Shown one piece after another: positions 18,888 to 45,165 of a stretch of DNA of 64,000 nt. The position numbers were made by a program, and so were the translations under genes. Numbering within the stretch: position 1 is the stretch's first letter; each line of letters starts with the position of its first letter. Source of the DNA: a virus. The stretch lies in the IMG/VR virus record IMGVR_UViG_3300005617_000581. The stretch is one strand, 5' to 3'. The notes beneath the pieces are model-generated. The model was not told where the DNA came from and made no database searches. It was given only the letters and a program-made list of their open reading frames with translations.

Positions 18888-18981
18888 GTAACCGCGTTAA
18901 GATCAGGCCGCAACACCCACTGGCGGTTCCGTCCGTCGGGCGTAAGCGTCGGCGCAGGCATAAGGCGAGGAAGATCGTAAG

Positions 18982-19101: not shown

Positions 19102-19113
19102 GGGAGGAACCTG

Positions 19114-19437: not shown

Positions 19438-19486
19438 GCTATCGTGATCGACGCGAAATATTTCGCCGAGGAGAGGAGAACGAGAC

Positions 19487-21151: not shown

Positions 21152-21160
21152 GAGGTCGCC

Positions 21161-21412
21161 GTGGCCTACACGCACGGTACCGCGGGAACGTATGGGCGCG
21201 GCTGCAGGTGCGCCGAGTGCCGCGAGGCCTGGCGGGTCTACAGCGTCGCCCGGCGCGCGGTTCGCGCCGAGCTGCTGCGCAACGATCCGACGCTGGTCGC
21301 CCACGGCCGGACGTCTACCTACGACAACTGGGGCTGCCGGTGCGACGAGTGCCGCGTCGCGGGGTCCGAGACCCTCCGGCGGCGTCGCCGCCACCGTCAC
21401 CGGTTTAGCTAG
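21161..21412 (+). CDS. Small Cys-rich protein with duplicated GTxGYxxGCRCxxCR motif (putative zinc-binding nucleic-acid-binding protein)
   Basis: AYTHGTAGTYGRGCRCAECREAW and GRTSTYDNWGCRCDECRVAG are two copies of one motif, followed by a basic tail RRRRRHRHR. Confidence 0.45.
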   Translation: MAYTHGTAGTYGRGCRCAECREAWRVYSVARRAVRAELLRNDPTLVAHGRTSTYDNWGCRCDECRVAGSETLRRRRRHRHRFS

Positions 21413-21436
21413 GAACGATCAGACAGGAGGAACAAG

Positions 21437-26774: not shown

Positions 26775-27647
26775 GTGATGTTCATTAGTATTTTGATCTT
26801 ATTGTTGGTCGTGGCCGGACTGGTCGCCATCCTCAAGGGCAGCGTCGGCACGGGACAGGACGAGTTTTCGATCCGCTGGATCGGCGGGGTGCTGCTCGGC
26901 ATCGCGTTCGTCGTGTTCCTGCTCGCGACCATCGTGATCGTTCCGACTAAAAACGTCGGCGTCGTGACGGCGTTCGGCCGTCCGACGGGCACGCTTCACA
27001 ACGGCATTCACGTCGTCTGGCCGTGGGAATCGGTTACCGACTACGACGCGACGATCCAGACGTTGTCGACGTCTGACATGCACGTGCGAATGGTCAACGG
27101 CACCGCTACCGCGAACGTCAACGTGACACTTAACTGGCGCCTGGAAGGTGACATTCAGCAGATTCACGTCGACTGGCGCGAGTTTAGCCGCATCCAGACA
27201 TACGTCATTCAACCTCGACTGCAGGACGCGCTGAACAAGGAGTTCATCGACTTCGACCCACTCGTCGCGCTGAAGCAGACTGGCGGTAAGCCGATCTCGA
27301 TGGTGACCATGGAGCAGCGCGTCGCCGAGCGTCTGCAGCACAGCCTGCCCGCCGGTATCTTCGTCGATCACCTGCAGCTGCCGCTGGTCGTCTACCCCGC
27401 GGTCGTCCAGGACGCGCTGAACGCCTACCAGAAGGAACTGGCTAACACGCAGGTCGCGCTGCAGCAGAAGATCACGGCGCAGGCTCAGAAGGACGCGCTG
27501 GATATCTTGTCGCAGGTCCGGATGTCGCCGGAGGCGTTCCTGCAGCAGTGCCTGATCATGACCGAACGCCTGGCGCAGCAGGGTAAGATTATCTCGCAGA
27601 CCTGGTCGTGTGTGTCTGGTTCGGCCGGTACTGTAGCGATTAAGTAG
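26775..27647 (+). CDS. SPFH/band-7 (prohibitin/HflK-like) membrane protein
   Basis: N-terminal TM helix, then a TKNVGVVTAFGRP...HVRMVNGTATANVNVTLNWRL SPFH core and a coiled-coil tail. Lower GC than surrounding genes. Confidence 0.55.
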   Translation: MMFISILILLLVVAGLVAILKGSVGTGQDEFSIRWIGGVLLGIAFVVFLLATIVIVPTKNVGVVTAFGRPTGTLHNGIHVVWPWESVTDYDATIQTLSTSDMHVRMVNGTATANVNVTLNWRLEGDIQQIHVDWREFSRIQTYVIQPRLQDALNKEFIDFDPLVALKQTGGKPISMVTMEQRVAERLQHSLPAGIFVDHLQLPLVVYPAVVQDALNAYQKELANTQVALQQKITAQAQKDALDILSQVRMSPEAFLQQCLIMTERLAQQGKIISQTWSCVSGSAGTVAIK

Positions 27648-27873: not shown

Positions 27874-29355
27874 GTGCAGCCCAAGACGCGCGCGCAGCTG
27901 TTCGCCGAGCTCGCGGATCCCCCGCAGCTGAAGTGGCGGAGCGATCCGCGCGCGTGGGTGGTTGACCGCGCGCGCGTCGAGGTCTGGTCCCGGCAGCGCG
28001 AGATCCTCGAGGCGGTGCGTGACCACGAGAAGGTCGCGATCCCGTCCTGCCACTCCGCGGGTAAGAGCTTTACGATGGGCCTCCTGACGTGCTGGTGGAT
28101 CGACTGCCACCCCGTCGGCGAGGCCCGCGTCGTCTCGACGGCGCCGACGTCGAAGCAGGTCGACGCCGTCCTGTGGAACGAGATCAACCAGCACCACGCG
28201 CGGATCGGCCTCGGCGGGCGCACGAACAAGAACGAGTGGTACTTCGGTAGGTTCCTCGCGGGCCTGGGTCGCAAGCCACCCGACCACGTACAGGCGGCGT
28301 TTCAGGGTCTCCACGCCCTGTACCTGCTGGTCATCTTCGACGAGGCCTACGGCATTCCGAAGCACCTGTGGGACGAGGGCTCGTCGCTCGCGTCGAACCG
28401 CAACGCGCGGATGGTCGCCGTCGGCAACCCCGACGGACCCGGGGAGTTCGCCGAGATCTGCAAGCCGGGTAGCGGCTGGTACGTCATGCCGATCTCGTAC
28501 CGGGACACGCCGAACTTTACCGGCGAGGACGTCTCCGACCGGCTCAAGGACATGCTCATCGCGCCGACGTGGGTCGAGGACCGGCGTCGCAAGTGGGGCG
28601 AGAACTCGGCCCTGTTCCAGTCGAAGTGCGAGGGACGATTCCCAGCCGAGGGTTCGCCGTGGGACGTCATTCCACACGCCTGGGCCGCCGCGTGCCGCTA
28701 CCTCGACCTGCCGGTCGAGGGCGAACGCGAGGCTGGGATCGACATCGGCGCGGGAAACGACCGTACGGTGATAACGATCCGCCAGGGATCGGTGGTTCTC
28801 GACGTTAGGTGGTTCGTCAGCCCCGACCCGGTGCGGACCGTCGGCGACCTGGCGCTTCACATCCGTGACTGGAAGGTAAAGCGCGCGAAGGTCGACTCGA
28901 TCGGCGTCGGCTGGGGCGTCTACGGCGCGCTCAGCGAGGCCGTTCCGGACGTCGAGATCATTCCGATCAACGTCTCGATGCAGCCGTCGTCGGCCGACGC
29001 GCAGGAGAAGTACCTCAACAAGCGCGCCGAGATGTGGTGGGACGTCGGCCGCGAGCTGATCCGCGCGCGTCAGCTCGACCTGTCGCGGCTGCCCGAGGAC
29101 GTCCAGGACGACGTTATTCACGAGCTGTCGTGCCCGCGCTACGAGATCCTCGACTCGCGGGGTAAGATCAAGATCGAGCCGAAGGAGCGGATCATCGAGC
29201 GCCTCGGCGTCTCGCCGGACCTCGCGGAGTCGCTGCTGCTCGCGTTCGTCCCCGCCAACTGGACGGCCGAGCTGCAGGCGTCGGGTATGCTGGCGATGCC
29301 GTCGCTGCTGGAGGGCCTGCGGCCGTCGGACCTGACGGGCCGACGTAGCTGGTAG
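27874..29355 (+). CDS. Terminase large subunit
   Basis: Walker A is IPSCHSAGKSF. The N-terminal ATPase and C-terminal nuclease-like domain (VGNPDGPGEF...DIGAGNDRTVITI) fit TerL. GTG start lies 9 nt after a TAGTAT -10-like element. Confidence 0.8.
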   Translation: MQPKTRAQLFAELADPPQLKWRSDPRAWVVDRARVEVWSRQREILEAVRDHEKVAIPSCHSAGKSFTMGLLTCWWIDCHPVGEARVVSTAPTSKQVDAVLWNEINQHHARIGLGGRTNKNEWYFGRFLAGLGRKPPDHVQAAFQGLHALYLLVIFDEAYGIPKHLWDEGSSLASNRNARMVAVGNPDGPGEFAEICKPGSGWYVMPISYRDTPNFTGEDVSDRLKDMLIAPTWVEDRRRKWGENSALFQSKCEGRFPAEGSPWDVIPHAWAAACRYLDLPVEGEREAGIDIGAGNDRTVITIRQGSVVLDVRWFVSPDPVRTVGDLALHIRDWKVKRAKVDSIGVGWGVYGALSEAVPDVEIIPINVSMQPSSADAQEKYLNKRAEMWWDVGRELIRARQLDLSRLPEDVQDDVIHELSCPRYEILDSRGKIKIEPKERIIERLGVSPDLAESLLLAFVPANWTAELQASGMLAMPSLLEGLRPSDLTGRRSW

Positions 29356-30842: not shown

Positions 30843-31115
30843 CGACCAGCTGCCCAGAAGGGGTGCGATGGGAATCCGGTTTTTAGGCCGGTAGCAACAG
30901 CGGCAGCCAAGAGAGCCCCTTCACAAAGCTCTGCCCGCCGTGTTGGCCCGAGCGGTATGGGGTTGGTTGGGGCAATCGGGCCTCCTAAAAAGTCCGCGTT
31001 GAGGTAACTCCGCGGCACATCTCCAAATCCTGTAAGCGGGTTCGCCGCGCGTTTGGCGCGCGCAGGTTCACGGCCTACGAACTCACGCCTCAATCAACCC
31101 AAAAGGAGGTTCCGC

Positions 31116-31844
31116 ATGGAACACAGGACAGAAGCCGCAAAACTCCGCTCGGAGTGGGCGCACAACGCGTCGGAAGTTATGATCGGCGTGGTGCGGGCGA
31201 TCACCAAGCGCTCAAAGTTGATCACGGGCCTCGCGCTCGGTGCGTCGACCCCACACCAGATCGTCTACCTGCTCGCCCTGTGCGTCCCGCACATGCACCT
31301 GAGTACTTCAGTTGACACCGTTCAACTGGTCCAGAACTACCTGGAAGCCCTGGGGATGATCATCATAGCCCTGGCGGTTCCGATCTGCACCGACATCACG
31401 ATCTACAGCTGCGTCGACACTCTCGGCGCGATGGCTGCGACCAAGACGTCAAAGATTCGTGCGTTCATCTTTCTTCTTATTCCACTCGGCGCGAGTGGTT
31501 TTGTAAACTTCCTCGCGCCGGCGCCGATGATCCTCAAGGGGCTCGCGGCGTTCCTGGTAGTACTCGTTATGATCTCCCAGGGACTTAAGTTCGTCGACAC
31601 GGACTGGGATAAGCTCGAGGAATTTGAGGCACAGAACACGATCGTCGAGGATGCGCCGTCGCGACCGGGACGCCGACCGGTTACGGCCCGTGAGCGTCGG
31701 GCGCGTGAGAGGGATCTCTACGCCGCGATGACCAAGACCGAGCAGTACAAGTGGCGCCTGAAGTGGGACGCCGACGAGCAAAAGCGACTGGCAAAGCTGC
31801 AGACCCAGCTCCCAGCGGTGCCCGAGACGGCTACCGTCGGATGA
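31116..31844 (+). CDS. Integral membrane protein (DUF2637-like) with basic/coiled C-terminal tail
   Basis: In-frame ATG 31116 after AAAAGGAGG. Four hydrophobic helices, then a KR-rich coiled tail. Confidence 0.5.
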   Translation: MEHRTEAAKLRSEWAHNASEVMIGVVRAITKRSKLITGLALGASTPHQIVYLLALCVPHMHLSTSVDTVQLVQNYLEALGMIIIALAVPICTDITIYSCVDTLGAMAATKTSKIRAFIFLLIPLGASGFVNFLAPAPMILKGLAAFLVVLVMISQGLKFVDTDWDKLEEFEAQNTIVEDAPSRPGRRPVTARERRARERDLYAAMTKTEQYKWRLKWDADEQKRLAKLQTQLPAVPETATVG

Positions 31845-31932
31845 GGTACACGAGGACCGCGAAATCTTCGCGGTCCTCGGCTACTTTGGCCGACAAAGTG
31901 ATATTATGAACAGGAAACGAGAGGAGAACGAG

Positions 31933-32982
31933 ATGAAGCTCAATAAGACACGCCGCTCGACGGCGACCCTGCTCGGGGTCGCGTTCGGGGACGCGATGGG
32001 ACGCAACACGGAGTTCGTCTACTCCGTCAAGGAGATCGTGCGCCGCAACCTGGTCGTGTACGACCTGCCGCGCCCGGCCCTGGTCACCGACGATACCGAC
32101 ATGACGCGCTACGTCTGTCGCGCGCTGTTGGCTGTCGACGACGTCGCTAACCTCGAACACGCGTTCGTCGAGCAGTTCATCGACTGGTACGACCAGATGG
32201 ACTCGGGCCGCAAGCCCGGCTCGTCGTGCATCCGCGCGGTGCGCAGCCTGATCGCGGACTCGAAGCACGACTGGCTGAGCAACACGGACCCGTTCGCCAA
32301 GGGATGCGGCGCCAACATGCGCGTCGCGCCGGTGGCGCTCGACACGCGCCTGGTGCCCGACTTCGAGGCCGTCGCGAACGTCGCGCAGCTCCAGTCGGCG
32401 ATCACGCACGCGCACCCGACCGCCCTGGCGGCCGCCGAACTGACGGCGTACGCGATCTGGCTGCTGCGCTGGGAGAACTTCGCGCTCGACGCGCGGCTCA
32501 TCGAGGCGCTGCTCGAACGGTGCGACTCGCAGCGCGGCGTCTACCGCGAGGACGTGCTCGGCGACCTGGCTAAGTATTGGTCCGACCGCAAGGCGATGGC
32601 TGGCTACGGTCGGCGCTGGAAGCCGGTCAACGCTAAGCGCGCGATGCAGCTCGGCTGGGACGAGGTGCTCGGCTCGATCCTCGACGTGTACGACGCGTAT
32701 ACGCTCGAGGACGTCGGCGACGACGTCTGTTCCTACACGGGAGGTGGCTGGATCGCCGAGGAGGCGCTAGCCGGTGCGCTGCTGGCGGCACTGTGGCACC
32801 CCGAAAATCCGGTCCGCGCACTGATGCGCGCCGCGACGACGTCGGGTGACTCGGATTCGCTGGCCAGCATCGCAGGCGCGCTTCACGGCGCGTGCTACGG
32901 GTACGACGCGTGGCCTCACGACTGGTACGCCCGCATCGAATTCGGCGACGAGCTCGCCGAATACGGCGAGCGCTGGGACTAG
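31933..32982 (+). CDS. ADP-ribosylglycohydrolase family protein (ARH/DraG-like)
   Basis: GVAFGDAMG, TEF and VTDDTDMT are the ARH-family Mg-binding signature. Preceded by ACGAGAGGAGAACGAG-ATG. Confidence 0.6.
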   Translation: MKLNKTRRSTATLLGVAFGDAMGRNTEFVYSVKEIVRRNLVVYDLPRPALVTDDTDMTRYVCRALLAVDDVANLEHAFVEQFIDWYDQMDSGRKPGSSCIRAVRSLIADSKHDWLSNTDPFAKGCGANMRVAPVALDTRLVPDFEAVANVAQLQSAITHAHPTALAAAELTAYAIWLLRWENFALDARLIEALLERCDSQRGVYREDVLGDLAKYWSDRKAMAGYGRRWKPVNAKRAMQLGWDEVLGSILDVYDAYTLEDVGDDVCSYTGGGWIAEEALAGALLAALWHPENPVRALMRAATTSGDSDSLASIAGALHGACYGYDAWPHDWYARIEFGDELAEYGERWD

Positions 32983-32986: not shown

Positions 32987-33148
32987 GTGGACGTCGCGGA
33001 ACTGCTGGACCGAATCGGCCGCTGCGAAGCGTGCGGCCGGTTCGTCGTCGAGGACGAACTAATCGAACTGCTAACCCTGTTGGTCTGTGAAGACTGCCGC
33101 GATGAACTTAAGAGAGAAGGAGAACGAGATGACCAAGATTCACGATGA
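32987..33148 (+). CDS. Possible small zinc-ribbon protein
   Basis: A GTG-initiated 53-aa ORF with CEACG...CEDC. It overlaps the start of the next gene by 20 nt. Confidence 0.25.
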   Translation: MDVAELLDRIGRCEACGRFVVEDELIELLTLLVCEDCRDELKREGERDDQDSR

Positions 33149-33578
33149 ACTACCGGGCGTGCTGACGTGCCCCGAGGGTCACTTTCACGGCTACGTGATC
33201 GTTCACCTAACGTGGGAATCGACGGAGCCGTTCGCGCTCGTCGTCGAGGTTACGCCGCAGGATCGGTGGATGCTCGGTTCGACGGTCCACGGCGTCGCGG
33301 AGCGCGAAACGTTCGCGCAGTGTGCCGCACACGGCGACGTATCGTGCGAGGTCTACGGCACGCCAGGCGCCGTCACGTTCAAGATAAGGGCCACCGAACA
33401 CGAGGTCATGACCATCGCGGTCCCACACGAACTTCCTGACGGCCGCAAGCGCGTCGTGCTGACGGCGTTCGAGCGCGCGTCCGCGATCGGCTTTATCACG
33501 CGGACCTACGACGAGGTTCCGGCCGGCCGCGAGGACTGCGACATCGACCACCTCGCAGCGCGCCTGCTATATTCATAA
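33129..33578 (+). CDS. Hypothetical protein (start-associated-sequence gene)
   Basis: ATG 33129 preceded by AGAGAGAAGGAGAACGAG. 149 aa. Confidence 0.5.
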   Translation: MTKIHDELPGVLTCPEGHFHGYVIVHLTWESTEPFALVVEVTPQDRWMLGSTVHGVAERETFAQCAAHGDVSCEVYGTPGAVTFKIRATEHEVMTIAVPHELPDGRKRVVLTAFERASAIGFITRTYDEVPAGREDCDIDHLAARLLYS

Positions 33579-33607: not shown

Positions 33608-33646
33608 AAGGCGCCCTACCTCTACCGAGGTAGGGCGCCTTTTTCG
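33608..33646 (+). terminator. Intrinsic (rho-independent) terminator
   Basis: A perfect 14-15-bp stem AAGGCGCCCTACCTC / GAGGTAGGGCGCCTT with loop TACC, followed by TTTTT. Confidence 0.8.
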
Positions 33647-34079: not shown

Positions 34080-35669
34080 GTGGCCGATCGTCCCTCGGCG
34101 CGTACCCGCGTCGCAGCTTCAAGCCACGACGACCGTACGCCGCTCGTCGGCGCGTCGCAGATGCTGCTCGGTCTACCGGGTGAGGACTACGCGCAGCGCT
34201 ACAAGTCGTGGCAGGACGAGCTGTGGGACTACACGCGCAACGTCGGCGAGTACGGCGGCGTCATGGACTGGTTCGCGTCGGGGATCTCGCGCATGCACCT
34301 GGTCGCAGCTGTCCAGCGTCCGGGTGAGCAGCGCGAACCCGAGATCCTGGCCGACGGACCCGCGGCCGACCAGATGCACCAGCTCGCCGCGTACGCCGCG
34401 GGCGGCGAAACACAGTACCTCTATAAGTGGGGTCGACACCTCGGGGTGCCCGGCGTTGGTTTCTTCATCGCGTACGACAGGGACGGCATGCGTCAGTTCG
34501 ACGTCAAGTCCGCCAAGCAGATCAGGCGCTCCGAGAAGCCCTTCTACGACGCGCAGAACCGAATCATTAAGACGCCCAAGGGCGAGGTAATCCGCGGCTT
34601 CGACGTCGAGGTCGCCGAGGGGCGCTGGGAACAGCTTCCCTACGAGTCGCTGGTCGGCCGCATCTACCGGCCGGACGACGAGCTGGACTACGAGGTATCC
34701 TCGTGGTCGCGCGGCGCGCTGACGACGCTACGCGAGATCGACCTGCTGAACCGACACGTCGTCGCTACGCTGCTGTCCCGGCTCGTCTTCAACGGCATCC
34801 TGTTCATACCGAGCGAGGTCACGTTCCCGGTCAACCCGCAGTTCAAGGACGCGCCGGATCCGTTCATCGCGGAGCTGGCGGCCGTCGCGGCGCGCGGCAT
34901 CAAGGACCCGGGCTCGCCGCTGAGCGCGCTGCCGCTGCCGCTGCGCGTCAAGTCGGACATGATCGAGCACTTCAAGCACCTGGTCATCGCGACCGGGGTC
35001 GACCCTAAGATCAACGAACTGCGCGCCGCGGCGATCCAGCGCCTGGCGCAGCAGCTGCCCGCGCCGCCGAGCGCGATGGAGGGCACGCAGGACTCGAACC
35101 ACTGGAACGCGTGGAAGGACTCCGAGGACAACATCAAGCTGTACTTCGGACCGACCATGGAAATCCTATGTGGCGGACACACGGACATCTACCTGCGGCC
35201 GATGTTGAAGGCGGCCGGTCACCCCCTGGAGACCTCCGACGGCGGCCGGATCATCTGCTGGTACGACGCATCGGACCTGATCAACAAGCCGGACAACTCG
35301 GAGAACGCGCGCGACGCGCGCGAAAAGATCGTCATCTCGGACGGGTCGTACCTGCGTCAGCTCGGCATGGACGACGACGACATGGCGACGGACGAGGAAC
35401 GCCGCAAGCAGATCCTGACGACGCTCGCGATCCAGGGGCTTCCTATTCCCGACTCGTACTACCTGCTGTACCCCGACGATAAGCCGGAACCGGGCGTCGA
35501 CCAGCTCGGCAACCCGATCCCGCAACCCGGACTGGCGGCCGGTGGACCGTCGCCTAACGCTGGCCCGTCGGGCGGATCCGCCAACGGTCGACCGGCCGCC
35601 GACCAGTCAACCGTCAAGACGCGCGCGCCGAAGGCTGTACCTACCCCGAGCGGCCCACGGGGAGGTTAG
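34080..35669 (+). CDS. Portal protein
   Basis: 529 aa, first large gene of the head-morphogenesis block immediately upstream of the MuF-like gene. It has an acidic/Gly-Pro C-terminus. Confidence 0.6.
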   Translation: MADRPSARTRVAASSHDDRTPLVGASQMLLGLPGEDYAQRYKSWQDELWDYTRNVGEYGGVMDWFASGISRMHLVAAVQRPGEQREPEILADGPAADQMHQLAAYAAGGETQYLYKWGRHLGVPGVGFFIAYDRDGMRQFDVKSAKQIRRSEKPFYDAQNRIIKTPKGEVIRGFDVEVAEGRWEQLPYESLVGRIYRPDDELDYEVSSWSRGALTTLREIDLLNRHVVATLLSRLVFNGILFIPSEVTFPVNPQFKDAPDPFIAELAAVAARGIKDPGSPLSALPLPLRVKSDMIEHFKHLVIATGVDPKINELRAAAIQRLAQQLPAPPSAMEGTQDSNHWNAWKDSEDNIKLYFGPTMEILCGGHTDIYLRPMLKAAGHPLETSDGGRIICWYDASDLINKPDNSENARDAREKIVISDGSYLRQLGMDDDDMATDEERRKQILTTLAIQGLPIPDSYYLLYPDDKPEPGVDQLGNPIPQPGLAAGGPSPNAGPSGGSANGRPAADQSTVKTRAPKAVPTPSGPRGG

Positions 35670-35670
35670 T

Positions 35671-37812
35671 ATGACGAGGTTTGCCGGTTGGTCTGAGCGT
35701 GAGCTACTCCGGCGTGAGCGGGTGTTTGACGGCCTACTCAACAAGGCGACGCGATCCGTCGGGCGCGTCGTTGCGGCCAACATGCGCGCCGCGCTGACGG
35801 CCGCGGCGGCCCCGGACGACGAGTACGTTCCGAGCGGCTGGCAGCCCGCGGGCGGGGAAGTCGCGACCGCGTGGGCGTACCACGTCGACCACGAGCTGAT
35901 GCCGTACCTCGAGGACGCGTTCCTCGACTCGGCGGCCGACGTCCACGGCGCCGCCGAGCTCGCGGCCGGGGTATCGATCACGAAGGTCACCGACGAACTC
36001 GCGAGCGACTACCTCGCGGCGGCGCGCAACCGACTAGTCGGCGTCGGCGACCTGGTCTGGAACGCGATCCGCGTCGAGCTGTCCAGCGGCTACGCCGCCG
36101 GCGACGGCGTCGAACAGCTCGCGACGCGCGTACGTAAGATCGTCGACGTCACCGAGCCGCGTGCCCGGACGATCGCGCGGACCGAGCTGATCTCGGCCGT
36201 CAACGCGTCGAACCTGCTGCAGGTTAAGATCGCCGGGTTTACCGACGCCGAGTGCTCTAAGTGCTGGCTGGCGACCGACGACGAACGCACGCGGATCGCG
36301 CATCACCAGGCCGACGGGCAGTGCGTCGGGCTGTGGCAGCCGTTCATCGTCGGCGGCGAAGGCCTGCAGTTTCCGGGGGATCCGTCCGGGCGGCCCGACA
36401 ACGTCATCAACTGCCGGTGCAGCCTCGGGTATGAGTTCCACGACGACGATCCGCTAACCGCCGCGGAAGATTTCGGGCTCGACTGGGATCCGACCGAGCA
36501 TCCGCGCAACCCGGCGGACGGACGGTTCGTCGACGTCGTCGGCGCCGTCGAAAGGTTCATCGACGCCGACGAAGCTACCAGGATGCACGTCGCGATGACG
36601 AAGGGTAAGCCCTGGACGAAGGCACAGGACAAGGCCCTGGAGGGCTACGTCACGCGTACGTTCACGCCCGTTAATGGCGTGCTGCGCGGCGAGCAGGAAT
36701 CCGACGAACGAACCGACCAGGAAATCGCGAACATTCACGCCGCGATGAGGCCGACCACGCAGCCGATCCGCGTATCGCGACGCGTGCAGTCGACGGCGTT
36801 CGGAATTCCACCGGGCGTCGGGGCCGACCGCGACTACAGCGGCGACCTGCAGCACCTGGTCGGGCGAACGCTGCGCGAGCCGGGATTTCTGTCGACGTCG
36901 ACCAACGAACGATGGAGTAAGCCGACGCTGGTGGCGGGGCGCATGATCGTTATCGAGCTGGACGTACCGGCGGGCACGCCCGCGGCGTTTCTCGGCGCGC
37001 CCGGCGGACCCGGCATGTCACACGAGAGCGAGCTGCTGCTCGACCACGGCACCAAGTTCGTCGTCACTAAGGTGTTCAAGGAACCCAACGGCCCGACGCG
37101 CGTCTACGGCCGCGTCGTTACCGACACGCTCGTCGCCAAGTACGACCCGAAGGAGCTCCGCGACGACCACGGCCGCTGGACGGATACGCCCGGGTCGGGT
37201 GCCGCCTACAAGATGTTCGACTACCTGGCGGACCAGCGCGACCGGAACGACTTCGAGCGCGAGATGGACGACAACGGCCCCGCGCCGACGACGGAGCAGT
37301 TCAGCGAGCTGGAGCTCTACGCCGACAGCGGCTACGACGACATCAACACGGCGCTCCGCCGAAAGCGAACGCACGGCGAAGATCCGAGTGACGACGTACT
37401 CAACAGCATCACGCTCCTCAGGGACGCCATGCGCCCGACGCCGCGCGACGTTCAGGTACGTCGCCACGTCGAACCGGACGCGTTCGGCATTAAGACTAAC
37501 CACCAGGTCCTACTGAGCAAGCACCACGACTGGTCGAGCGAACTTAAGCACCTCGTGGGAAGGACGCTCGAGGAACCAGGATTCATGTCTACGTCGGTAG
37601 ATCCCAACTGGTCGAGCCACGCGACATACGGAATCATGATCGAGGTCAACGTGCCCGAGGGTACGCCGGCGTACTACATGGGAGGCATGGACGGTCCAGG
37701 CCTCGAAGGTGAGTTTGAGCTTCTCCTTAACGCGGGAACTCGGTTTAAGGTTTTGGACGTGGTACACGAGTCGGGACGGATCACGACGGTGCGCGCGGAG
37801 GTGGTTTCGTGA
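35671..37812 (+). CDS. MuF-like head-morphogenesis protein fused to two tandem C3/VIP2-type ADP-ribosyltransferase domains
   Basis: MuF core has RIAHHQADGQ...NCRCS. ART1 has YVTRTFTPVNGVLRG, VSRRVQ (Arg), FLSTST (STS) and SHESELLL (ExE). ART2 has YDDINTALR, QVRRHV, FMSTSV and EGEFELLL. Confidence 0.75.
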   Translation: MTRFAGWSERELLRRERVFDGLLNKATRSVGRVVAANMRAALTAAAAPDDEYVPSGWQPAGGEVATAWAYHVDHELMPYLEDAFLDSAADVHGAAELAAGVSITKVTDELASDYLAAARNRLVGVGDLVWNAIRVELSSGYAAGDGVEQLATRVRKIVDVTEPRARTIARTELISAVNASNLLQVKIAGFTDAECSKCWLATDDERTRIAHHQADGQCVGLWQPFIVGGEGLQFPGDPSGRPDNVINCRCSLGYEFHDDDPLTAAEDFGLDWDPTEHPRNPADGRFVDVVGAVERFIDADEATRMHVAMTKGKPWTKAQDKALEGYVTRTFTPVNGVLRGEQESDERTDQEIANIHAAMRPTTQPIRVSRRVQSTAFGIPPGVGADRDYSGDLQHLVGRTLREPGFLSTSTNERWSKPTLVAGRMIVIELDVPAGTPAAFLGAPGGPGMSHESELLLDHGTKFVVTKVFKEPNGPTRVYGRVVTDTLVAKYDPKELRDDHGRWTDTPGSGAAYKMFDYLADQRDRNDFEREMDDNGPAPTTEQFSELELYADSGYDDINTALRRKRTHGEDPSDDVLNSITLLRDAMRPTPRDVQVRRHVEPDAFGIKTNHQVLLSKHHDWSSELKHLVGRTLEEPGFMSTSVDPNWSSHATYGIMIEVNVPEGTPAYYMGGMDGPGLEGEFELLLNAGTRFKVLDVVHESGRITTVRAEVVS

Positions 37813-40800
37813 GCGCGCTCAGCGACGGTAAGAACGCGCTGTTCGTCCTCGTCGACGAGGACGAACCGCTGGCGGCCGCGCTGTCGCACAAGCAGGTCAA
37901 GGCGATGGATATCGCTGCTCAGGCGCTTAAGAACCTACCCGGATCCGGCGACTGGGATCCGAAGCTGCACCCGCGGAACCCGAACACCGGGGAGTTCATC
38001 GACAAGGGCACGTCGATCGTTAAGATCTCGAAGGACGACATCGGGCACATCATTGCGCTGGATCCGTCGGCGTTCAACGACTGGTTCATCAAGATAGGTC
38101 CACATACTAAGAAGAGCTGGGACGCGCAGGCGCCGGGTACGCAGAAGATTCTTAAAAACCTCGCGGCTAAGTACGCGGCCGCGGGACAGGGCGCCGACGC
38201 GTTCGACCTCATTCAAGTTTTCGAACACGTGGCAACGCACGGTAAGCTCACTGGCATCAAGTGGGATGCTCCACTCAAGCTGGACGAGCTCGGTCAGAGT
38301 GATTTCTTCGACTGGTTTCACGACATCTTCGTTTCGGGGGACAGCCACCATGATAAGCAGGCCTGGAACGAACTGTCAACGAAGCAAAAGGGTGAGGTCA
38401 TCGCGGAGGTCGCGAAGCTTCTAAGCTCACCTCATACAACCGACGCATACGTTAAGAACCTCGCGAAGAAGATCAACCAGCTCGAGGGTACCCCCGTCCT
38501 GAAGGTCGATACGCCGCCGTCGGCGTTCGTGCCGCAGCCGGCGCAGCCGATCGGCGTCGGAACGGTGCCCGTGGTCGGCGTTCCGTTGAAGATTAACACG
38601 CCGTTCGTCTACAAGACCGCGTTTATGAACAACACGATCATCGCTGAGAAACTGCAGCACGATCCGCCGCTGCGGATAATCTTTAAGAACAGTAAGTTTC
38701 ACATCCAATCGCAGGACGCCAGCGGCACGTGGGCAACGCCGAGCGTGGGGCTGACGCAAAAGCTCGGGATCGCCGGTCCGTACGGTAAGCCGCTCGGTAA
38801 GGGCGAGCTCTATAAGGCGTTTAAGAACGACGTCGGCTGGACGTCGCCCCTCAATACGCAGGCACACTTTAAGACTCCGAGCTCGGCTCCCCCACTGTCC
38901 GCCGAGACTCAGGCCGTGATCGAAGAGATCAAGATGATGTCTGGGCCGGAGTTCGTCGGATTCATGGACGACAACTATGACGAGATACTCGCTATGTGGA
39001 ATACCGCGCCCGACGAGGAGAAGAAGGTACTCAAGGACAAGGCAACCGAAGTCCTAACTCACCCGAAGGCGAATGGGTTCGTCTCGCCGAGCGACAAATC
39101 ATACCTGAAGCCGTACCAGCAGCTCCAGGAGATCGAAAAGCAGGTCAGCAACATGCTGAAGTCGACGACACCTCCCAAGGGGGCTGTCTATGGCACGTCG
39201 ACATTCGCGGTGCCGGGTAACCTGAACACGTACAGTAACGTCAACATCAACCAGTTCTACGACAGCATCACACAGGCCGACTGGGACTCGTTTGACAAGC
39301 CGACCAAGACCTACCTGCAGAAGATCGCGGATCAGTTCGAGCACGACGGTAACGACGAACCAGGCGCCGCGCTAATCGCCTTAAAGAACAACGAGGGACC
39401 CGGTTCGCCTTGGGCGAGCATGCCGACGCTGTCGCAGATGTCGCCGGAGATCTCGAAGATGGATTCGCTGCAGTTTAAGGAGTGGCTGGACAACCAGACC
39501 GCGCAGACGCTGAGCGAACTCAACCACAAGGAGCAGGTTCACCTGTTCGACGTCGCGGCGAACCACACCCTGACGAACTACCTACACGACGTCATCAGCT
39601 CGACGGCGTCGACGTTGACGGATCCACAGTTGTCGCCGCAGGCGAACCCGAACGTGCCGAGTACGCCAAACGTGCCGACGACGCCCGGCGTTCCGGGCAA
39701 CCCGATCCTGCAGTCGATCCACGAAAACGTGCACGTCAACGTCAAGCCGATCGGTCAGATCGGCACGCCGATATCCGACGACCAGGTCGGTGCGTACGCG
39801 TCGATAACGCCGCTCGCGGCGCAGCACATGCAGGCCGAGATGCTTAAGCAGTCCGGTAAGACCTGGACGTCCGCGGAGATCAACTCCGTCGCGAAGTACA
39901 CGACGTCCGAGGGCTACCAGTCGATGAACGCGGTGCTGCGCAACGACCAGGTGCGCATGAAGAAGTTCTCGCAGCAGGCTCTTAAGGCCGCGGGTATGAA
40001 CGCGCGTGATCTTCAAAACGCCATGACGCCGACGACGACGAGCCTGCAGCTGTTCCGAGGAACGGGCGCGCACGCGTTCGGCTTCGACTCGGACCACGCG
40101 CCGAGCCTCGACGCGCTGAAGGCGCTCGAGGGGAAGCTGATCACCGACCGCGGGTTCACGTCGACGTCGATCGTCGACAAGACCGGCGTCGGCTGGGACT
40201 ACACCAAGAAGCCGATCCGCATCGAGATCAAGGTGCCGAAGGGCGCGCCCGCGCTGTACGTCTCGTCCGCGACCCCGGGCTACAAGACCGAGGAGGAACT
40301 GATCCTCGGCGCGGGTACGACGTTCCGGATCGACGAGGTTCGCGCCGCTACCGCGGCCGAGAAGGCGAAGCACGGCGGCGCGCTGGAGCACGTCGTCTCG
40401 GTAACCGTCGTCCCGCGCGCGAATCACCCCGGGCCGAAGAAGTTTCCGTCGTCCGTCGCGTCGCCGCTGTCGGCCGTCGACGCCGCGCAGGTGCCGCAGT
40501 CGCTTAAGCCGAACCCCAGTACGACGGCGACGCCGGGCGCGAAGCCGAAGGTTGGTGGAACGCCGTTCAAGTTCAACACGTCGACCATCTACAAGGTCGC
40601 GTACACGCCCGGCCAGACCGTCGCCGAACGACCGGGGCCCGACGGCGACATTAAGATGGTGTGGAACGTCAAGGGAAAGACGGGTAAGTTCCAGCTTTGG
40701 AAGAACGATCCGAACCTCAACAAGTGGCTGCTCGTCAAGGAGTACGGCAAGGGCGACGCGTACACGGCGTTTAAGAACGACTCGGGCTGGTTCGAGCCCG

Positions 40801-41870
40801 GATCCGTTGGGCAGCCGGACCTGGCGCAGCCGCTCGGCCTAACCGTGTCGCCGAAGAAGATCAGTAAGTACGACGCGAACGCCATCAAGGCCGAGCACGG
40901 CGACACGTACCTGTTTGGGTACGACGAAAAGGAGAGCCTCTACCAGCACTTTAAGAAGAACACCAGCCTCGGCTTCATAATGCTGAATACGCAGCCGCCG
41001 ACCGTCTTTAAGGCCCTCGCCCTGGCCGTCGCCAAGTGGAACAAGGATCACCCGGCGGACCACATGAACATGCTGCAGGGCATTAAGATCATCGACGAGT
41101 TCGGCCACATACACGCGCCCGCCGGAACGCCTAAGCAGACGTTGTGGGAAACCAAGGTCGTCGACTGGCTGACGACCGCGTCCGGTAAGAAGAACGCCGC
41201 CGGGTTCATCAACTGGGCCGAGGACTACGTCAACGCGCCGACGTCGACGACATCGTCCGGTGCGGTCGTACATCTTAAGCTGCCGATCGAGATCGGTACG
41301 CCGGACGCGAGCGAAACGAACTTCCCCGCCATCAAGTCGGCCGAGGCGATGGCCATGCATAAGAAGGCGATGACCAAGCACGGCGTGTGGAACAAGATGC
41401 AGACCGACGTGATCTACGACTACACCGGATCGGGATCCGGATACATCAACGGCGCGCTTCGCAGCGGCAACACGAACGGCAGCGGCTACCAATCCGCCAT
41501 CAAGATGCAGTCCGCGATGTACCCGGCCGAAAAGAGCTTCCAGGTGTTCCGCAACACCGAGAGCGTCGGCGCCGCGTTCAACGGATACACGCTGGAAGAC
41601 TGGCAAAAGATGGTTGGACAGACGCTTCTTGAGCCGGGATTTTCGTCGACCGCGGTCGGTAAGTCGGTGTTCGGGGGAAGAAAGTTCCACCTCGAGATCG
41701 AGGTTCCGAAGGGCACGCCGGGGGCGTACGTCAAGTCCGCGTCGGCCAACGCATACGAAAACGAGTACATAATCGCGGCGGGTACGAAGTTTCGCGTCCT
41801 GAGCGTGGCTAAGAAACCCGGCATCGGCAGCACCTACGGCTTTAACATACGACTGAGGGTGGTGTCTTAG
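37809..41870 (+). CDS. Large polyvalent virion protein (1353 aa) with two ADP-ribosyltransferase domains
   Basis: ART3 has YTTSEGYQSMNAVLR, LFRGTG, FTSTSI and KTEEELILG. ART4 has YTGSGSGYINGALR, VFRNTE, FSSTAV and YENEYIIA. N-terminal HPRNPNTGEFID motif. Lower GC. Confidence 0.7.
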   Translation: MSALSDGKNALFVLVDEDEPLAAALSHKQVKAMDIAAQALKNLPGSGDWDPKLHPRNPNTGEFIDKGTSIVKISKDDIGHIIALDPSAFNDWFIKIGPHTKKSWDAQAPGTQKILKNLAAKYAAAGQGADAFDLIQVFEHVATHGKLTGIKWDAPLKLDELGQSDFFDWFHDIFVSGDSHHDKQAWNELSTKQKGEVIAEVAKLLSSPHTTDAYVKNLAKKINQLEGTPVLKVDTPPSAFVPQPAQPIGVGTVPVVGVPLKINTPFVYKTAFMNNTIIAEKLQHDPPLRIIFKNSKFHIQSQDASGTWATPSVGLTQKLGIAGPYGKPLGKGELYKAFKNDVGWTSPLNTQAHFKTPSSAPPLSAETQAVIEEIKMMSGPEFVGFMDDNYDEILAMWNTAPDEEKKVLKDKATEVLTHPKANGFVSPSDKSYLKPYQQLQEIEKQVSNMLKSTTPPKGAVYGTSTFAVPGNLNTYSNVNINQFYDSITQADWDSFDKPTKTYLQKIADQFEHDGNDEPGAALIALKNNEGPGSPWASMPTLSQMSPEISKMDSLQFKEWLDNQTAQTLSELNHKEQVHLFDVAANHTLTNYLHDVISSTASTLTDPQLSPQANPNVPSTPNVPTTPGVPGNPILQSIHENVHVNVKPIGQIGTPISDDQVGAYASITPLAAQHMQAEMLKQSGKTWTSAEINSVAKYTTSEGYQSMNAVLRNDQVRMKKFSQQALKAAGMNARDLQNAMTPTTTSLQLFRGTGAHAFGFDSDHAPSLDALKALEGKLITDRGFTSTSIVDKTGVGWDYTKKPIRIEIKVPKGAPALYVSSATPGYKTEEELILGAGTTFRIDEVRAATAAEKAKHGGALEHVVSVTVVPRANHPGPKKFPSSVASPLSAVDAAQVPQSLKPNPSTTATPGAKPKVGGTPFKFNTSTIYKVAYTPGQTVAERPGPDGDIKMVWNVKGKTGKFQLWKNDPNLNKWLLVKEYGKGDAYTAFKNDSGWFEPGSVGQPDLAQPLGLTVSPKKISKYDANAIKAEHGDTYLFGYDEKESLYQHFKKNTSLGFIMLNTQPPTVFKALALAVAKWNKDHPADHMNMLQGIKIIDEFGHIHAPAGTPKQTLWETKVVDWLTTASGKKNAAGFINWAEDYVNAPTSTTSSGAVVHLKLPIEIGTPDASETNFPAIKSAEAMAMHKKAMTKHGVWNKMQTDVIYDYTGSGSGYINGALRSGNTNGSGYQSAIKMQSAMYPAEKSFQVFRNTESVGAAFNGYTLEDWQKMVGQTLLEPGFSSTAVGKSVFGGRKFHLEIEVPKGTPGAYVKSASANAYENEYIIAAGTKFRVLSVAKKPGIGSTYGFNIRLRVVS

Positions 41871-42859
41871 TGGGAGCTCTAACCGAGGATACACCCTTCG
41901 AGTTCGAGGTGGTACCGGACCAGGGATACACGACGGACGAGGCCTACGCGCTGCTCGCGGGCCTCGGCCCAAACACGTCCGAGCTGCCCGCGCCGCAGAC
42001 GGCCGCCGGATTCAATCCGCGTCAGCTGCGCGACTGGCACGGCCGCTGGGAAAAGCTTAAGCAGTCGTTCAAGCCCGCCGGTAGCGGCGACAAGTTTAAC
42101 TTCATCGAACACCTTGGGCGCGTAGAGCGCGCGGTATCCGAATCGCACAAGGCGCTGTCGACGGAGAACACGCACACGTACAAGGGAGCGTGGCTGCCGG
42201 AGCGCGACAAGCTGCACCGCCAGATCGTCGACGACCTCTACAAGCAGGCCGCGAACGTCCCAAACCAGGGACGCGCGATCATGCTCGGCGGACCGGCCGG
42301 AGCGGGAAAGAGCACCGTGCTTGAGGGTAAGCTGCGTGTCAAGCCGGGTAGCTTCCTGGTCATCAATCCGGACGACATCAAGGAGGAGCTGGCGCGCCGC
42401 AACCTGGTGCCCGAGATTCCCGGGTACGACGACCTGTCGCCGATGGACCGGACGACGCTGGTTCACCGCGAATCGGTTCGGATCGCGGACATGCTGGCGG
42501 ACCGCGCGTATCGCGATCGAAAGAACCTGATCTGGGATACGACGATGACGCGTTCGGACCTAGCGCTGTACCGCATCAAGCGGATGCGCCAGAGCGGCTA
42601 CGACGACATTCGAGGCGTCTTCGTCAACGCCGACGACCACGTCGCGATCCAGCGCGTTCGCGCACGCTACATGCGGGGCGCGCACGACTACAGCCAGGGA
42701 AAGGGCCTCGGAGGTCGGTTCGTACCGCAGGCCATCCAGGACCAGATGTCGACGGGCGAGACGCGCGCGTCGTTCAAGTACGTCCGTAGGTACTTCGACG
42801 ACTGGAAGATGTACGACAACTCGGGAAGTTCACCGCGACTGCACTCGGAGAAGAACTAG
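41870..42859 (+). CDS. Zeta-toxin-like P-loop kinase
   Basis: Walker A is IMLGGPAGAGKST and Walker B-like is FLVINPDD. An N-terminal approx 100-aa extension carries the LRDWHGRW motif. Confidence 0.55.
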   Translation: MGALTEDTPFEFEVVPDQGYTTDEAYALLAGLGPNTSELPAPQTAAGFNPRQLRDWHGRWEKLKQSFKPAGSGDKFNFIEHLGRVERAVSESHKALSTENTHTYKGAWLPERDKLHRQIVDDLYKQAANVPNQGRAIMLGGPAGAGKSTVLEGKLRVKPGSFLVINPDDIKEELARRNLVPEIPGYDDLSPMDRTTLVHRESVRIADMLADRAYRDRKNLIWDTTMTRSDLALYRIKRMRQSGYDDIRGVFVNADDHVAIQRVRARYMRGAHDYSQGKGLGGRFVPQAIQDQMSTGETRASFKYVRRYFDDWKMYDNSGSSPRLHSEKN

Positions 42860-43131: not shown

Positions 43132-45165
43132 ATGCCCTGGGAAGTTCGCCCGCGCGACGGTAAGTTCTGCGTCGTTAAGATCGCCGACAGTAGCGTCGTC
43201 GCGTGCCACGCGACGTCGGACAAGGCGAACGCGCAGGTGCGCGCGCTGTACGCGTCCGAGGCAAACGCGGCGCTGGACGCGCTGGCGACGTTTACCCGCG
43301 AATCCGACGTGAACATTCCCGTCGGCGGCGGGCACAACCTGCGCGACTACTGGGTCCGTGGTGAGGGCGCCGCCAAGATCCGCTGGAACACCGAGGGCGA
43401 CGGCACGCGCTGCATCAAGCACCTGCGGAAGTACGTCCGCGACCCGGGTGGACTGTGTCAGGAGTATCACCGCATGGCGACCGGTAAGAGCATGCATCCC
43501 CACCCCGGACGGCTGACGGAGGCTGAGGAGATGGAAGAATTCGCGGACACACCGGCCGAGCCCTACGGCGACGTCACGTACGCCGACCCGGGGTACCGCG
43601 GCCGTAAGCGCTACCCGATCGATACGCCGAAGCACGTTCGCGCGGCGTGGGCGTACATCAACATGCCGAAGAACGCCGCTAAGTACTCGACCGACCAGCT
43701 TAGGTCGATCAAGGCGAAGATCCAAAAGGCGATGTCTGGAATCGGCGCCGAGGTCGCCGCGGACGACGAGCTGGTTACCGCGGCCGGCTGTCCGCCGGGG
43801 CACCACAAGATGCCCGACGGCAGCTGCATGGCCGACGAGGACATGCAGGACTACGCGGTGCACATCGACGACGAGGGCGACGACGCGACGCCCGACGAAC
43901 CGTGGGAGGGCCCCCTGGTCGTCGAGGACGTCGAATCTGGCGACGGCCGCATGTTCTCGGCCGGGTCGCTCGACTGGGCCGACCTGCCGCAGCCGCTGAT
44001 GTACCAGCCCGCTAACGTCGGCGGGCACAACGGCTCGATCATGGTCGGCGAGATCCAGCACATGCGCCGCAAGGGCGCCGTCATCCACGGCCGCGGTCGA
44101 ATCTTCGGTCACATCGTCGACGGGGAGCACGGGGACGACGTACTGCAGATGGTTCGGACCGGCGGTGTTTCCGTCGACGTCGACAGCGTTAAGAACGCCG
44201 ACGTCGAGATGATCTACGCGGCCGACGACAAGGAGGGTTTCTTCTCGAAGCCCGAGATGACCGTCTACCATCGAGGTCGCATCCGCGGCGCGACGCTGGT
44301 CGCGTTTCCCGCGTTCGCCGACATGAAGCTCCAGCTTCTTAATGATCAACTAACGGCGTCCGGCGACGGAGGCTGCGATTGCGAGGACCGCTATGTCGAG
44401 CCGATCGTCGCGGCCGCGCACGCGATCACGATTCCGGACCTTCCGCCGCGCGGGTGGTTCGACGAGCCGACGGACGTCGAGCTGTCCGGCGCGCTGACGA
44501 TCACCGACGAGGGCCGCGTCTATGGAATCCTGGCGCCCGGGGGAACGCGCCACCGTAACCACGACGTCACCGTTCCGTTCCACAACGTCGACTACACCCG
44601 GTTCCACAAGGGCGAGACGATCGTCGACGGTGGAGGTCGCGTCGTCACGGGCGTCATCACCGCCGACTGTGGGCACGCGCCGACGCAGAACTACGGCACG
44701 CTGCAGGCGCGAATGGACCACTACGACAACTCGTGCTCGGTGCTGGCCAACGTCCGCGTCGGCGAATCGGCGAAGGGATACGTCTGGGTCGCGGGCGCGC
44801 TCAACCTGGGGGCGCAGCCTCACCAGGTCGCGCAGGCGCTCGGCTGCGCGCTGTCGGGCGACTGGCAGGGACACCCGGATCGGCCGGGCGTACGCGAGTT
44901 TATCGCGGCTCACCTCGTCCCGGTACCGGGATTCCCACTGGCGCGCACCAAGGCGTCGGTAACGCTTGAGGACGGCGTCGTCACGGCGTCGTGGCTTCCC
45001 GTTCGTCACGAGCCGACGCGCGAGCTCGCCGCGATCAACGACGCCAAGGCCGAGCTCGCGCGCCGGTTCGGCGTCGACCCGGCGAGCCGAAAGTCCAGGA
45101 TCTACGCCAAGTCGAGGAAGGTGAGGGCAACGTGTGCGCTTGCGGACATAGCCGCACTGAGGTAG
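43132..45165 (+). CDS. Capsid maturation (prohead) protease, HK97 gp4/S78 family, with extra N- and C-terminal domains
   Basis: The central block FSAGSLDW...NVGGHNGSIMVGEI...GVSVDV...RGATLVAFPAFADM aligns with HK97-type protease (IAPGAF...HD...GCSFGF...VSLVTFPAYEDT). Confidence 0.65.
   Translation: MPWEVRPRDGKFCVVKIADSSVVACHATSDKANAQVRALYASEANAALDALATFTRESDVNIPVGGGHNLRDYWVRGEGAAKIRWNTEGDGTRCIKHLRKYVRDPGGLCQEYHRMATGKSMHPHPGRLTEAEEMEEFADTPAEPYGDVTYADPGYRGRKRYPIDTPKHVRAAWAYINMPKNAAKYSTDQLRSIKAKIQKAMSGIGAEVAADDELVTAAGCPPGHHKMPDGSCMADEDMQDYAVHIDDEGDDATPDEPWEGPLVVEDVESGDGRMFSAGSLDWADLPQPLMYQPANVGGHNGSIMVGEIQHMRRKGAVIHGRGRIFGHIVDGEHGDDVLQMVRTGGVSVDVDSVKNADVEMIYAADDKEGFFSKPEMTVYHRGRIRGATLVAFPAFADMKLQLLNDQLTASGDGGCDCEDRYVEPIVAAAHAITIPDLPPRGWFDEPTDVELSGALTITDEGRVYGILAPGGTRHRNHDVTVPFHNVDYTRFHKGETIVDGGGRVVTGVITADCGHAPTQNYGTLQARMDHYDNSCSVLANVRVGESAKGYVWVAGALNLGAQPHQVAQALGCALSGDWQGHPDRPGVREFIAAHLVPVPGFPLARTKASVTLEDGVVTASWLPVRHEPTRELAAINDAKAELARRFGVDPASRKSRIYAKSRKVRATCALADIAALR

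Follow-up and report, generated by a model that had tools for sequence, protein, structure and literature searches.

Why a phage with four ADP-ribosyltransferase (ART) domains in its head module should also encode a putative ADP-ribosylglycohydrolase is the question raised by IMG/VR virus record IMGVR_UViG_3300005617_000581, of which we analyzed a 64,000-nucleotide stretch (the window) that comes from a tailed actinobacterial phage with a high GC content (65%), so far represented by metagenomic sequence only. The glycohydrolase gene, here called ARH (31933..32982, + strand), encodes a member of the ARH/DraG superfamily, is located between the large terminase and portal genes, and shares both strand and head module with the ARTs. 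A first-pass annotation had suggested that the product could counter host ADP-ribosylating defenses, for example DarT-like toxins, and could also temper the activity of the phage's own ARTs. We favor the second of these roles and propose, with a probability of roughly 0.55, that ARH would act as an accessory eraser of arginine ADP-ribosylation by the phage's own capsid-delivered ARTs, whereas a role against DarT-like systems is not supported.

Identity and predicted active site of ARH

The ARH reading frame runs from an ATG at 31933 to a TAG at 32980-32982 and encodes 349 residues, in the position given by the first-pass annotation. A longer open reading frame (ORF) is possible from 31906; this start is unlikely because the Shine-Dalgarno sequence GAGAGGAG ends 7 nt ahead of the ATG at 31933 and because the leader in which it lies, GAGA(A)GGAGAACGAGATG, also stands ahead of two neighboring gene starts (29866, 33114). 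This conserved translation-initiation leader (31917..31932, + strand), with GAGAGGAGAACGAG directly before the ATG, was recognized from a recurring 18-mer, GAGAAGGAGAACGAGATG, which is found again at 29866 and 33114 against a chance expectation of 0.02 matches. The GC content at third codon positions (GC3) is 0.906, comparable to that of the large terminase (TerL) and major capsid protein genes, and the frame is therefore coding. The translated product matches PF03747 with E=1.7e-51 and 176 bits (cutoff 26.2) over profile positions 2-286 of 287, and also matches PHROG 22100 and PHROG 6572. The gene is confirmed as real and as correctly identified by family.

The two motifs from which the superfamily had originally been recognized stand at residues 19-23 (GDAMG, nt 31987-32001) and 52-57 (TDDTDM, nt 32086-32103) of ARH, and together with the PF03747 match they bear out that assignment; the C-terminal metal-binding motif GDSDS occupies residues 305-309. 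In alignments with 21 and 40 homologs (43-76% identity), GDAxG...EF (E27), VTDDT (D53, D54, T55) and GDSDS (D306, D308, S309) are invariant, as are the further motifs KGCGANMRV, THxHP and GxGWxAE, and the ligands of the dinuclear metal site (E27, T52-D53-D54-T55 and D306-S307-D308-S309) are kept in 40/40 homologs. These ligands align with E28/D60/D61 and GGDADT of DraG, with GDSDS of ARH1, and with the metal ligands of Tri1. An AlphaFold2 model of ARH (predicted local distance difference test score 94.7, predicted template modeling score 0.94) consists of 20 helices in the all-alpha ARH fold, and a Foldseek search of the PDB with this model returned ARH3, ARH1 and MJ1187 at probability 1.00 and template modeling scores of 0.70-0.76, with ARH3 ranked first. 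Because the invariant motifs align with known ligands and the fold is confidently modeled, we take ARH to be catalytically competent; it is apparently a metal-dependent hydrolase that would act on an ADP-ribosylated substrate.

To which sub-family ARH belongs is answered differently by different searches. A single-sequence search of the PDB placed Tri1 best (6DRE, 5.7e-14), followed by DraG, ARH3 and ARH1, and a sub-family profile search returned human ARH1 (2.2e-29, full length), DraG (7e-29), Tri1 (1e-27) and ARH3 (2e-26), scores that all lie inside three orders of magnitude. ARH has in common with ARH1 the motifs GRAPG (GRKPG in the window), GCGA.MR, TH.HPT and GDSDS. The third residue of the 'E-D-D' catalytic triad of DraG and Tri1 is D97 (PMC8120803); the window ARH has K94 at this position, and most of its sub-family have Ala. 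The stretch around K94 reads GR(A/K)PG, matching the GRAPG of ARH1, which is likewise without that Asp. Two narrower assignments were rejected because their scores were 5-6 times under the cutoffs, namely the Tri1 equivalog (NF041672; 77.3 bits against a cutoff of 490, with a match that begins at model position 68 and the extension absent) and the DraG equivalog (TIGR02662; 73.1 bits against 337, with the catalytic D97 not kept). Tri1 is the best NCBIfam match of ARH, though below the equivalog cutoff. Only 11 residues precede GVAFGDAMG at the N-terminus, which has no Tri1-like plug. A DarG-type anti-DarT hydrolase was also considered and rejected, as ARH has the single domain PF03747 and its fold differs from that of the macrodomain and NADAR enzymes.

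The substrates of characterized DraG-like ARHs are Arg- or Ser-linked protein ADP-ribose, poly(ADP-ribose) (PAR) and O-acetyl-ADP-ribose (OAADPr) (PMC8120803). Because Foldseek cannot separate ARH1 from ARH3, the specificity of ARH within this range is a prediction. ARH1, DraG and Tri1 all hydrolyze ADP-ribosyl-arginine, which makes arginine the best guess, and on this comparison ARH is most likely ADP-ribosyl-arginine specific.

Linkage of ARH genes to head-module ARTs

The four ART domains counted by the first-pass annotation are all present. Two of them (36559-37176 and 37234-37809) belong to a MuF-like head protein encoded directly 3' of the portal gene (35671..37812, + strand; PF04233 E=2.2e-13 at residues 175-295, PF03496 E=3.6e-44 in two stretches), whose start is probably the ATG at 35671, immediately past the portal stop. 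The other two (39804-40385 and 41331-41867) lie in a 1353-aa multi-domain head-module protein (37809..41870, + strand; PF03496 E=9.9e-43 in two stretches, PHROG 3895). Each domain keeps the catalytic Arg, S-T-S (S-T-A in the fourth) and E-x-E. This R-S-ExE signature of C2/iota/VIP2-type ARTs is that of arginine-specific mono-ADP-ribosylation, and from it we infer that the window ARTs would modify arginines of host proteins. MuF is a head protein bound to the portal. The fusion has the architecture of the MuF polymorphic toxins, which have been proposed to be injected with the DNA like T4 Alt (PMC5576092, PMC9503650).

For a comparative survey, an alignment-based ARH query yielded 80 viral loci and a portal query 79; we took 10 kb of flank for each locus and scanned all ORFs with hidden Markov models for ARH, ART, portal and MuF. 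Among the 88 ARH loci, which include the window, a few near-duplicates, Logan-assembly contigs, the record of phage McProf and several loci too short to judge, an R-S-ExE ART stands 0.15-1.7 kb upstream of ARH on the same strand in 40, and an ART is found at greater distance in 8 more. The linked ART without exception forms the C-terminal end of a large ORF (~415-1700 aa where complete), which encodes a MuF fusion or else a giant protein of the head module. The base rate is given by the ARH-negative portal-anchored relatives, 17/52 of which carry an ART. ART-adjacent ARHs fall into at least three separate ARH clades of a rough neighbor-joining tree, and the association is therefore not one inherited accident. 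Two examples illustrate it: a ~57-kb actinophage (L018) has the order portal, MuF, a 1570-aa protein whose last domain is an ART, ~1.3 kb, a 388-aa ARH and scaffold, and a low-GC phage (L086) has a 663-aa MuF-ART, a 72-aa ORF and a 276-aa DraG-like ARH. A difference in catalytic motif between ARH-linked and ARH-free ARTs was also considered and rejected, both groups being almost all R/S-x-S/ExE.

Both ARH-positive relatives of the window phage with enough sequence to judge carry ARTs. In one (L008/L153; 98.9 kb, IMGVR_UViG_3300049306_000006), which belongs to the window's ARH clade, ARH lies 5' of the terminase gene and six or more ART domains follow the portal; in the other (L027/L099; 103 kb), which is portal-related, ARH lies 3 kb ahead of the portal, with two or more ART domains beyond it. 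The portal of L153 is 64% identical to that of the window, and one of the consecutive ARTs that follow it (11675-21417) has Q-x-E in place of E-x-E. Among cultured phages, the temperate McProf encodes a MuF-ART fusion (gp54, R/STS/ExE) right after its portal and an ARH (gp86) 25 kb away, in a region regarded by its authors as lysogeny-expressed (PMC9434293), and Gordonia phage Sixama has an ARH (gp56) and an ART (gp75) in one genome. A tblastn search of cultured phages with a single window ART domain returned 5 Microbacterium records only, an insensitive search for which the McProf ART domain is the better query.

The resulting pattern is asymmetric, in that an ARH is usually accompanied by an ART and an ART is often found without an ARH, as is to be expected if ARH acts on ART products and the ARTs are independent of it. 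No ART lies within 10 kb of ARH in the jumbo-phage and Rhodococcus-phage ARH clades; for L003-L005 (Logan), Trina and Phrappuccino, 'no ART' covers the 10 kb around ARH and not whole genomes. Thus, the recurrence of ARH just downstream of head-module R-S-ExE ART fusions, together with the ARTs of the ARH-bearing relatives L153, L099, McProf and Sixama, argues for the part of the first-pass annotation that had ARH temper the phage's own ARTs.

For the window phage we propose the following course of events. The ART-bearing head proteins (the MuF fusion and the 1353-aa protein) would be made late, packaged, and injected with the DNA, a route that the MuF fusion, the head-module position and precedent make likely, and the injected ARTs would then ADP-ribosylate arginines of host proteins. 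ARH would be expressed from the phage genome in the infected cell, out of its own small unit, and would hydrolyze the Arg-ADP-ribose bonds left by the ARTs, as its family, intact site and linkage suggest. As a result, the producing cell might be spared self-intoxication while the fusions accumulate before packaging, or the injected pulse might be ended, or both; in this scheme the family, the intact catalytic residues, the fold, the gene context and the ARH-ART linkage are observations, and arginine specificity, packaging and injection of the ARTs, the timing of ARH expression and its protective role are predictions. The action of ARH would be purely enzymatic, as a Tri1-like N-terminal plug is lacking. 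We describe ARH as accessory because ART-bearing relatives manage without it.

Several observations weigh against this proposal. The single-sequence, profile and fold searches put ARH about equidistant from ARH1, ARH3, DraG and Tri1, and the catalytic D97 of DraG is replaced by K94. The window ARH does not follow the classical toxin-then-immunity order: it belongs to a small unit of its own, with the first ART 3.6 kb further downstream. ARH appears dispensable in ART-bearing relatives: L016, a syntenic relative, has two ART domains and no ARH at the equivalent site or within 10 kb of the portal, and L096, L097, L098, L102-L104 and others have ARTs and no ARH within 10 kb of the portal. Many cluster-A mycobacteriophages bear (VIP2-like) ARTs, against 21 cultured-phage records that match ARH. 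The nearest non-phage ARH homologs are chromosomal actinobacterial genes (45-48% identity) without an adjacent ART. Finally, the zeta-toxin-like kinase encoded right after the ART proteins (41870..42859, + strand; PF06414 E=5.2e-20), probably a further capsid-delivered effector, has no recognizable epsilon-type antitoxin nearby; it is without a recognizable antidote in the module, so head-packaged effectors are not obviously in need of one.

Had ARH been acquired to strip ADP-ribose that a host defense puts on the proteins or nucleic acids of the phage, independent of the phage ARTs, its patchy, indel-like distribution among close relatives and its own promoter-like element would be typical of an accessory conflict gene, and the host-type chromosomal ARHs that are its nearest homologs would be consistent with capture from the host. 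We know of no defense system that ADP-ribosylates arginine on phage proteins, and the DNA target of DarT2 is thymine. According to PMC11825919, DarT1 ADP-ribosylates guanine in DNA, and the DarT marks it describes are removed by NADAR enzymes (DarG1) or macrodomain enzymes (DarG2) and not through the ARH fold; an enzymatic 'orphan antitoxin' against DarT1 does exist, and this phage counter-measure, AdfN, is a NADAR protein. Characterized ARHs act on the protein-linked, PAR and OAADPr substrates given above (PMC8120803), PADLOC returned no match for ARH, the ART proteins, the zeta-like kinase or the membrane protein of the SPFH family encoded near the terminase, and the same-strand position of ARH directly behind a phage ART in 40/88 loci is left unexplained. 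The host-defense reading, which could involve a protein-ADP-ribosylating defense not yet recognized, is consequently improbable, and its DarT-specific form, as raised in the first-pass annotation, finds no backing. If the ARTs in question were instead those of competing related phages, ARH would guard the infected or lysogenized cell against superinfection. Related soil phages in the collection often have MuF-ART arsenals (the 17/52 ARH-negative relatives), the McProf-type prophage ARH lies in a putative lysogeny-expressed region 25 kb from its MuF-ART (PMC9434293), ARG-centered systems of hosts are predicted to act against viral ARTs (PMC9503650), and prophage immunity has been proposed to shield lysogens (Jamet et al., PMC5576092). 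The tight ART-then-ARH adjacency of many phages points first to the phage's own toxin, and neither an integrase nor a repressor was found in the 64-kb window. We regard such protection from rivals as unlikely to be the primary role; it plausibly overlaps with erasure of the phage's own marks, and sequence cannot separate the two.

A soluble substrate is a further alternative, in which ARH would hydrolyze an ADP-ribose derivative (OAADPr or ADP-ribose-based immune signals) or would remove regulatory ADP-ribosylation of the host and so redirect actinobacterial metabolism or development. OAADPr and ribose-ribose bonds are substrates of ARH3-type enzymes (PMC9503650, PMC8120803), Foldseek ranks ARH3 as high as ARH1, the sister clade of the window ARH consists of chromosomal actinobacterial ARHs among housekeeping genes, and the jumbo-phage and Rhodococcus-phage ARH clades lack an ART within 10 kb. 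From phyletic patterns, however, viral ARH domains have been argued to prefer macromolecular conjugates (Iyer et al., PMC9503650), the family scans showed no Thoeris-, sirtuin- or NAD-salvage-related gene close to ARH, and the strong positional linkage of ARH to ARTs is left unexplained, all of which makes this role quite improbable. That ARH is an inactive relic, or a pseudo-enzyme that merely binds ADP-ribose or an ART, could be argued from the K94 substitution alone. ARH1 also lacks that Asp (GRAPG at the position), the metal ligands and family-invariant residues are all kept in homologs of 43-76% identity, GC3 is 0.906 with an intact ORF in relatives of 99% and 75% identity, and a Tri1-like N-terminal extension that could serve in binding is absent; we judge an inactive ARH to be very improbable.

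The own-ART eraser can also be stated in a bolder form, which we hold to be rather unlikely as a whole. The phage would probably be lytic, a capsid pulse of four ARTs and the zeta-like kinase would take over the host, and an ARH captured from the host lineage and placed under a private promoter would then erase the marks and also shield the cell from the ARTs of rival phages. If true, this would be a reversible phage-encoded writer/eraser cycle, unlike the one-way modification known from T4.

The ARH unit, the effector module and the phage

ARH is the first gene of a small unit bounded 5' by a strong hairpin and 3' by an intrinsic terminator. The hairpin (31836..31894, + strand) has 28-nt arms, spans the stop codon of the upstream gene and has a folding energy of -41.8 kcal/mol (z = -7.0, with 0/200 shuffles equally stable); without a U tail, it is probably a factor-independent terminator or an RNA-stability element. 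Between the hairpin and the gene, 25 nt 5' of the ARH start codon, lies a promoter-like extended -10 element, GTGATATTAT (TGn + TATTAT; 31898..31907, + strand), recognized from its relative motif count: GTGATATWRT has 6 matches in the window against 2.1 expected, 5 of them on the + strand (26724, 29418, 30741, 31898 and 43124), and the copies at 26724, 29418 and 31898 stand ~30-50 nt ahead of gene starts. We therefore treat GTGATATTAT as the candidate promoter of ARH. Near-identical copies of the ribosome-binding leader GAGA(A)GGAGAACGAGATG occur at 26760, 29454, 29866, 31917 and 33114, in the terminase-to-portal interval, and the repeated -10-like elements and leaders suggest a set of small, separately promoted units between terminase and portal. 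Downstream of ARH, and co-transcribed with it judging by position, is a 52-aa Cys-rich (CxxC...CxxC) ORF (32990..33148, + strand), followed by a 150-aa ORF (33129..33578, + strand; conserved leader 33114-33131) that is the last of the unit. The intrinsic terminator (33608..33641, + strand) has a 15-bp stem and a U run (-31.3 kcal/mol, z = -5.9). SsgA is a Streptomyces cell-division and sporulation protein. The 150-aa ORF has a weak, sub-threshold Pfam match to SsgA (E=0.0024, 18 bits against a cutoff of 25) and matches no other family; if real, the match would hint at a sporulating actinomycete host for the phage.

Both of the small ORFs behind ARH have homologs in L016, whose portal and terminase are 65% and 75% identical to those of the window. 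L016 has the same order of a homolog of the gene at 31053, a hairpin, GTGATATAGT and the leader, which in L016 leads directly into the CxxC ORF, with ARH absent at the site. ARH is present at the equivalent site in the JGI contig L166 (75% identity), and in the IMG/VR contigs L006, L007 and L010 at 99% identity; its ORF is intact in the relatives of both groups, and a near-identity DNA search of the region against cultured phages gave no match. Being present or absent as a single gene behind a promoter-like element, ARH behaves as an accessory gene.

The effector proteins of the head module share a junction motif, NPRQLRDWHGRW, which is common to the zeta-like kinase and the ART proteins. Its instances between effector domains read WDPTEHPRNPADGRF, WDPKLHPRNPNTGEF, YDPKELRDDHGRW, FNPRQLRDWHGRW and FDPTELRDEHGRW, and its sites are at 36499-36528, 37968-37997 and ~42010-42055 (zeta residues 48-62), at residues ~548-562 of the MuF-ART protein, and at ~4860-4900 of L010. 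The motif may mark where the proteins are processed, may signal packaging, or may be a joint at which recombination shuffles domains. L010, a 99%-identical relative, has three in-frame insertions that the window lacks: a ~200-aa extra domain of the MuF protein, flanked by the junction motif (L010 4860-5462), ~72 aa more in the 1353-aa protein (7700-7915), and ~120 aa more in the scaffold/protease (13449-13817). A Pfam search of these extra domains and of the non-ART parts of the 1353-aa protein gave no match. Effector modules are gained or lost between near-identical phages.

The remaining gene order is that of a tailed phage whose major capsid protein is ~33% identical to its counterparts in Gordonia, Streptomyces and Microbacterium phages. 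Genes for a family A DNA polymerase, a SNF2 helicase and a PD-(D/E)XK nuclease lie at the left end of the window on the - strand. The following genes are all on the + strand: a primase-polymerase/D5 helicase (14496), the SPFH/Band-7 membrane protein (26775-27647) just 5' of the terminase, TerL (27874-29355) followed by several small genes, a 263-aa ORF (31053-31844) directly upstream of the hairpin and ARH, a DUF1360 protein between the ARH-unit terminator and the portal, the portal protein (34080..35669; PHROG 776, E=3.8e-75), the scaffold/protease (43132-45165) and the major capsid protein (45403). McProf, too, encodes a membrane protein that is Band-7-like (gp16). A search of the window for tRNA genes found none, and no integrase or repressor was found among its large ORFs, so that lysogeny is not established for this phage; its genome is probably longer than the window, as relatives reach 99-104 kb.

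Bacterial ARH neighborhoods were inspected in two actinobacteria. On a Saccharothrix chromosome (L165 7098-10383), two ARH paralogs stand around a 190-aa ORF beside a PHD-like antitoxin gene, and in Micromonospora (L164 8001-9577) an ARH adjoins a PemK toxin gene and ligA. Neither neighborhood contains an ART or the Nudix, WYL or phosphatase partners of the published 'ARG-centric' systems, and derivation of the window ARH from such a system is therefore not supported.

Comparison with known systems

Earlier papers have noted ARH domains in actinophages of medium size, ART-ARH pairs in phages, and fusions of MuF to ARTs (PMC9503650, PMC5576092, PMC3482391), and genes of cultured actinophages already bear the annotation 'ADP-ribosyl glycohydrolase'. 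Relative to these three papers, the modest novelty here is the regular position of ARH behind head-module ART fusions and the one-way dependence of ARH on ART, so that the finding adds an example and a distribution to the known toxin/antidote theme and not a new principle. The comparative pattern (40/88 ARH loci behind an ART, and ARTs often without an ARH) bears on the function of MuF-ARTs and on when a phage must undo them.

The cultured actinophage genes (McProf gp86, Sixama gp56, and those of Trina and Phrappuccino) resemble the window ARH in Pfam family and in their actinobacterial hosts, and McProf and Sixama also encode R-S-E ARTs. They differ in being 31-38% identical to it, in belonging to another ARH clade and in their genome position; a literature search found no experimental study of a phage ARH, these genes included. 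DraG of the DraT/DraG writer/eraser pair (PDB 2WOC, 2WOD, 2WOE) is Arg-ADP-ribose specific and has the same fold and dinuclear metal site, whereas the window ARH has ~50 extra residues (roughly 205-255), does not keep D97 and has no nitrogenase context. Human ARH1 (PDB 3HFW, 6G28, 6IUX), which reverses R-S-E arginine-specific ARTs, is the best profile match and has the diagnostic motifs in common with the window ARH; unlike it, ARH1 is a eukaryotic cytosolic protein without a toxin-partner gene, and the two are ~22% identical.

The partners of the window ARH find their likeness in the MuF toxins and T4 Alt, with a MuF-ART fusion, a head-module multi-ART protein and a packaged-and-injected logic that has been proposed for MuF and demonstrated in the case of T4 Alt. 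A need for immunity is expected of MuF-ART toxins, and Jamet et al. 2017 anticipated small (<150 aa) non-enzymatic ORFs directly downstream in this role, with MuF toxins in temperate phages only (PMC5576092). The window departs from those systems, as its candidate antidote is a 349-aa enzyme encoded upstream of the portal and no lysogeny genes were found among the large ORFs of the 64 kb.

An enzymatic antidote has its closest precedent in the Imm-ARG immunity proteins, which occur strictly with R-S-E ART toxins and were described in 2012 as the only known enzymatic immunity proteins (Zhang et al. 2012, PMC3482391), and in Tri1, which reverses Tre1 (PMC8120803). The Tre1-Tri1 pair of Serratia proteamaculans (PDB 6DRE) resembles the window in what appears to be a coupling of an ARH-fold hydrolase to R-S-ExE ART domains, and the mechanism expected in both is reversal of Arg-ADP-ribosylation. 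Unlike Tri1, the window ARH has no ART-occluding N-terminal extension, has Lys for the third catalytic Asp, and belongs to a phage head module and not to a type VI secretion system; unlike a typical Imm-ARG gene, which stands immediately downstream of its toxin, it is upstream of the ARTs. If the pairing is functional, the phage would regulate its own injected ADP-ribosylating effectors by an enzyme and not by a binding inhibitor, and writer/eraser logic of the Tre1/Tri1 type would extend from bacterial secretion systems to capsid-delivered phage toxins.

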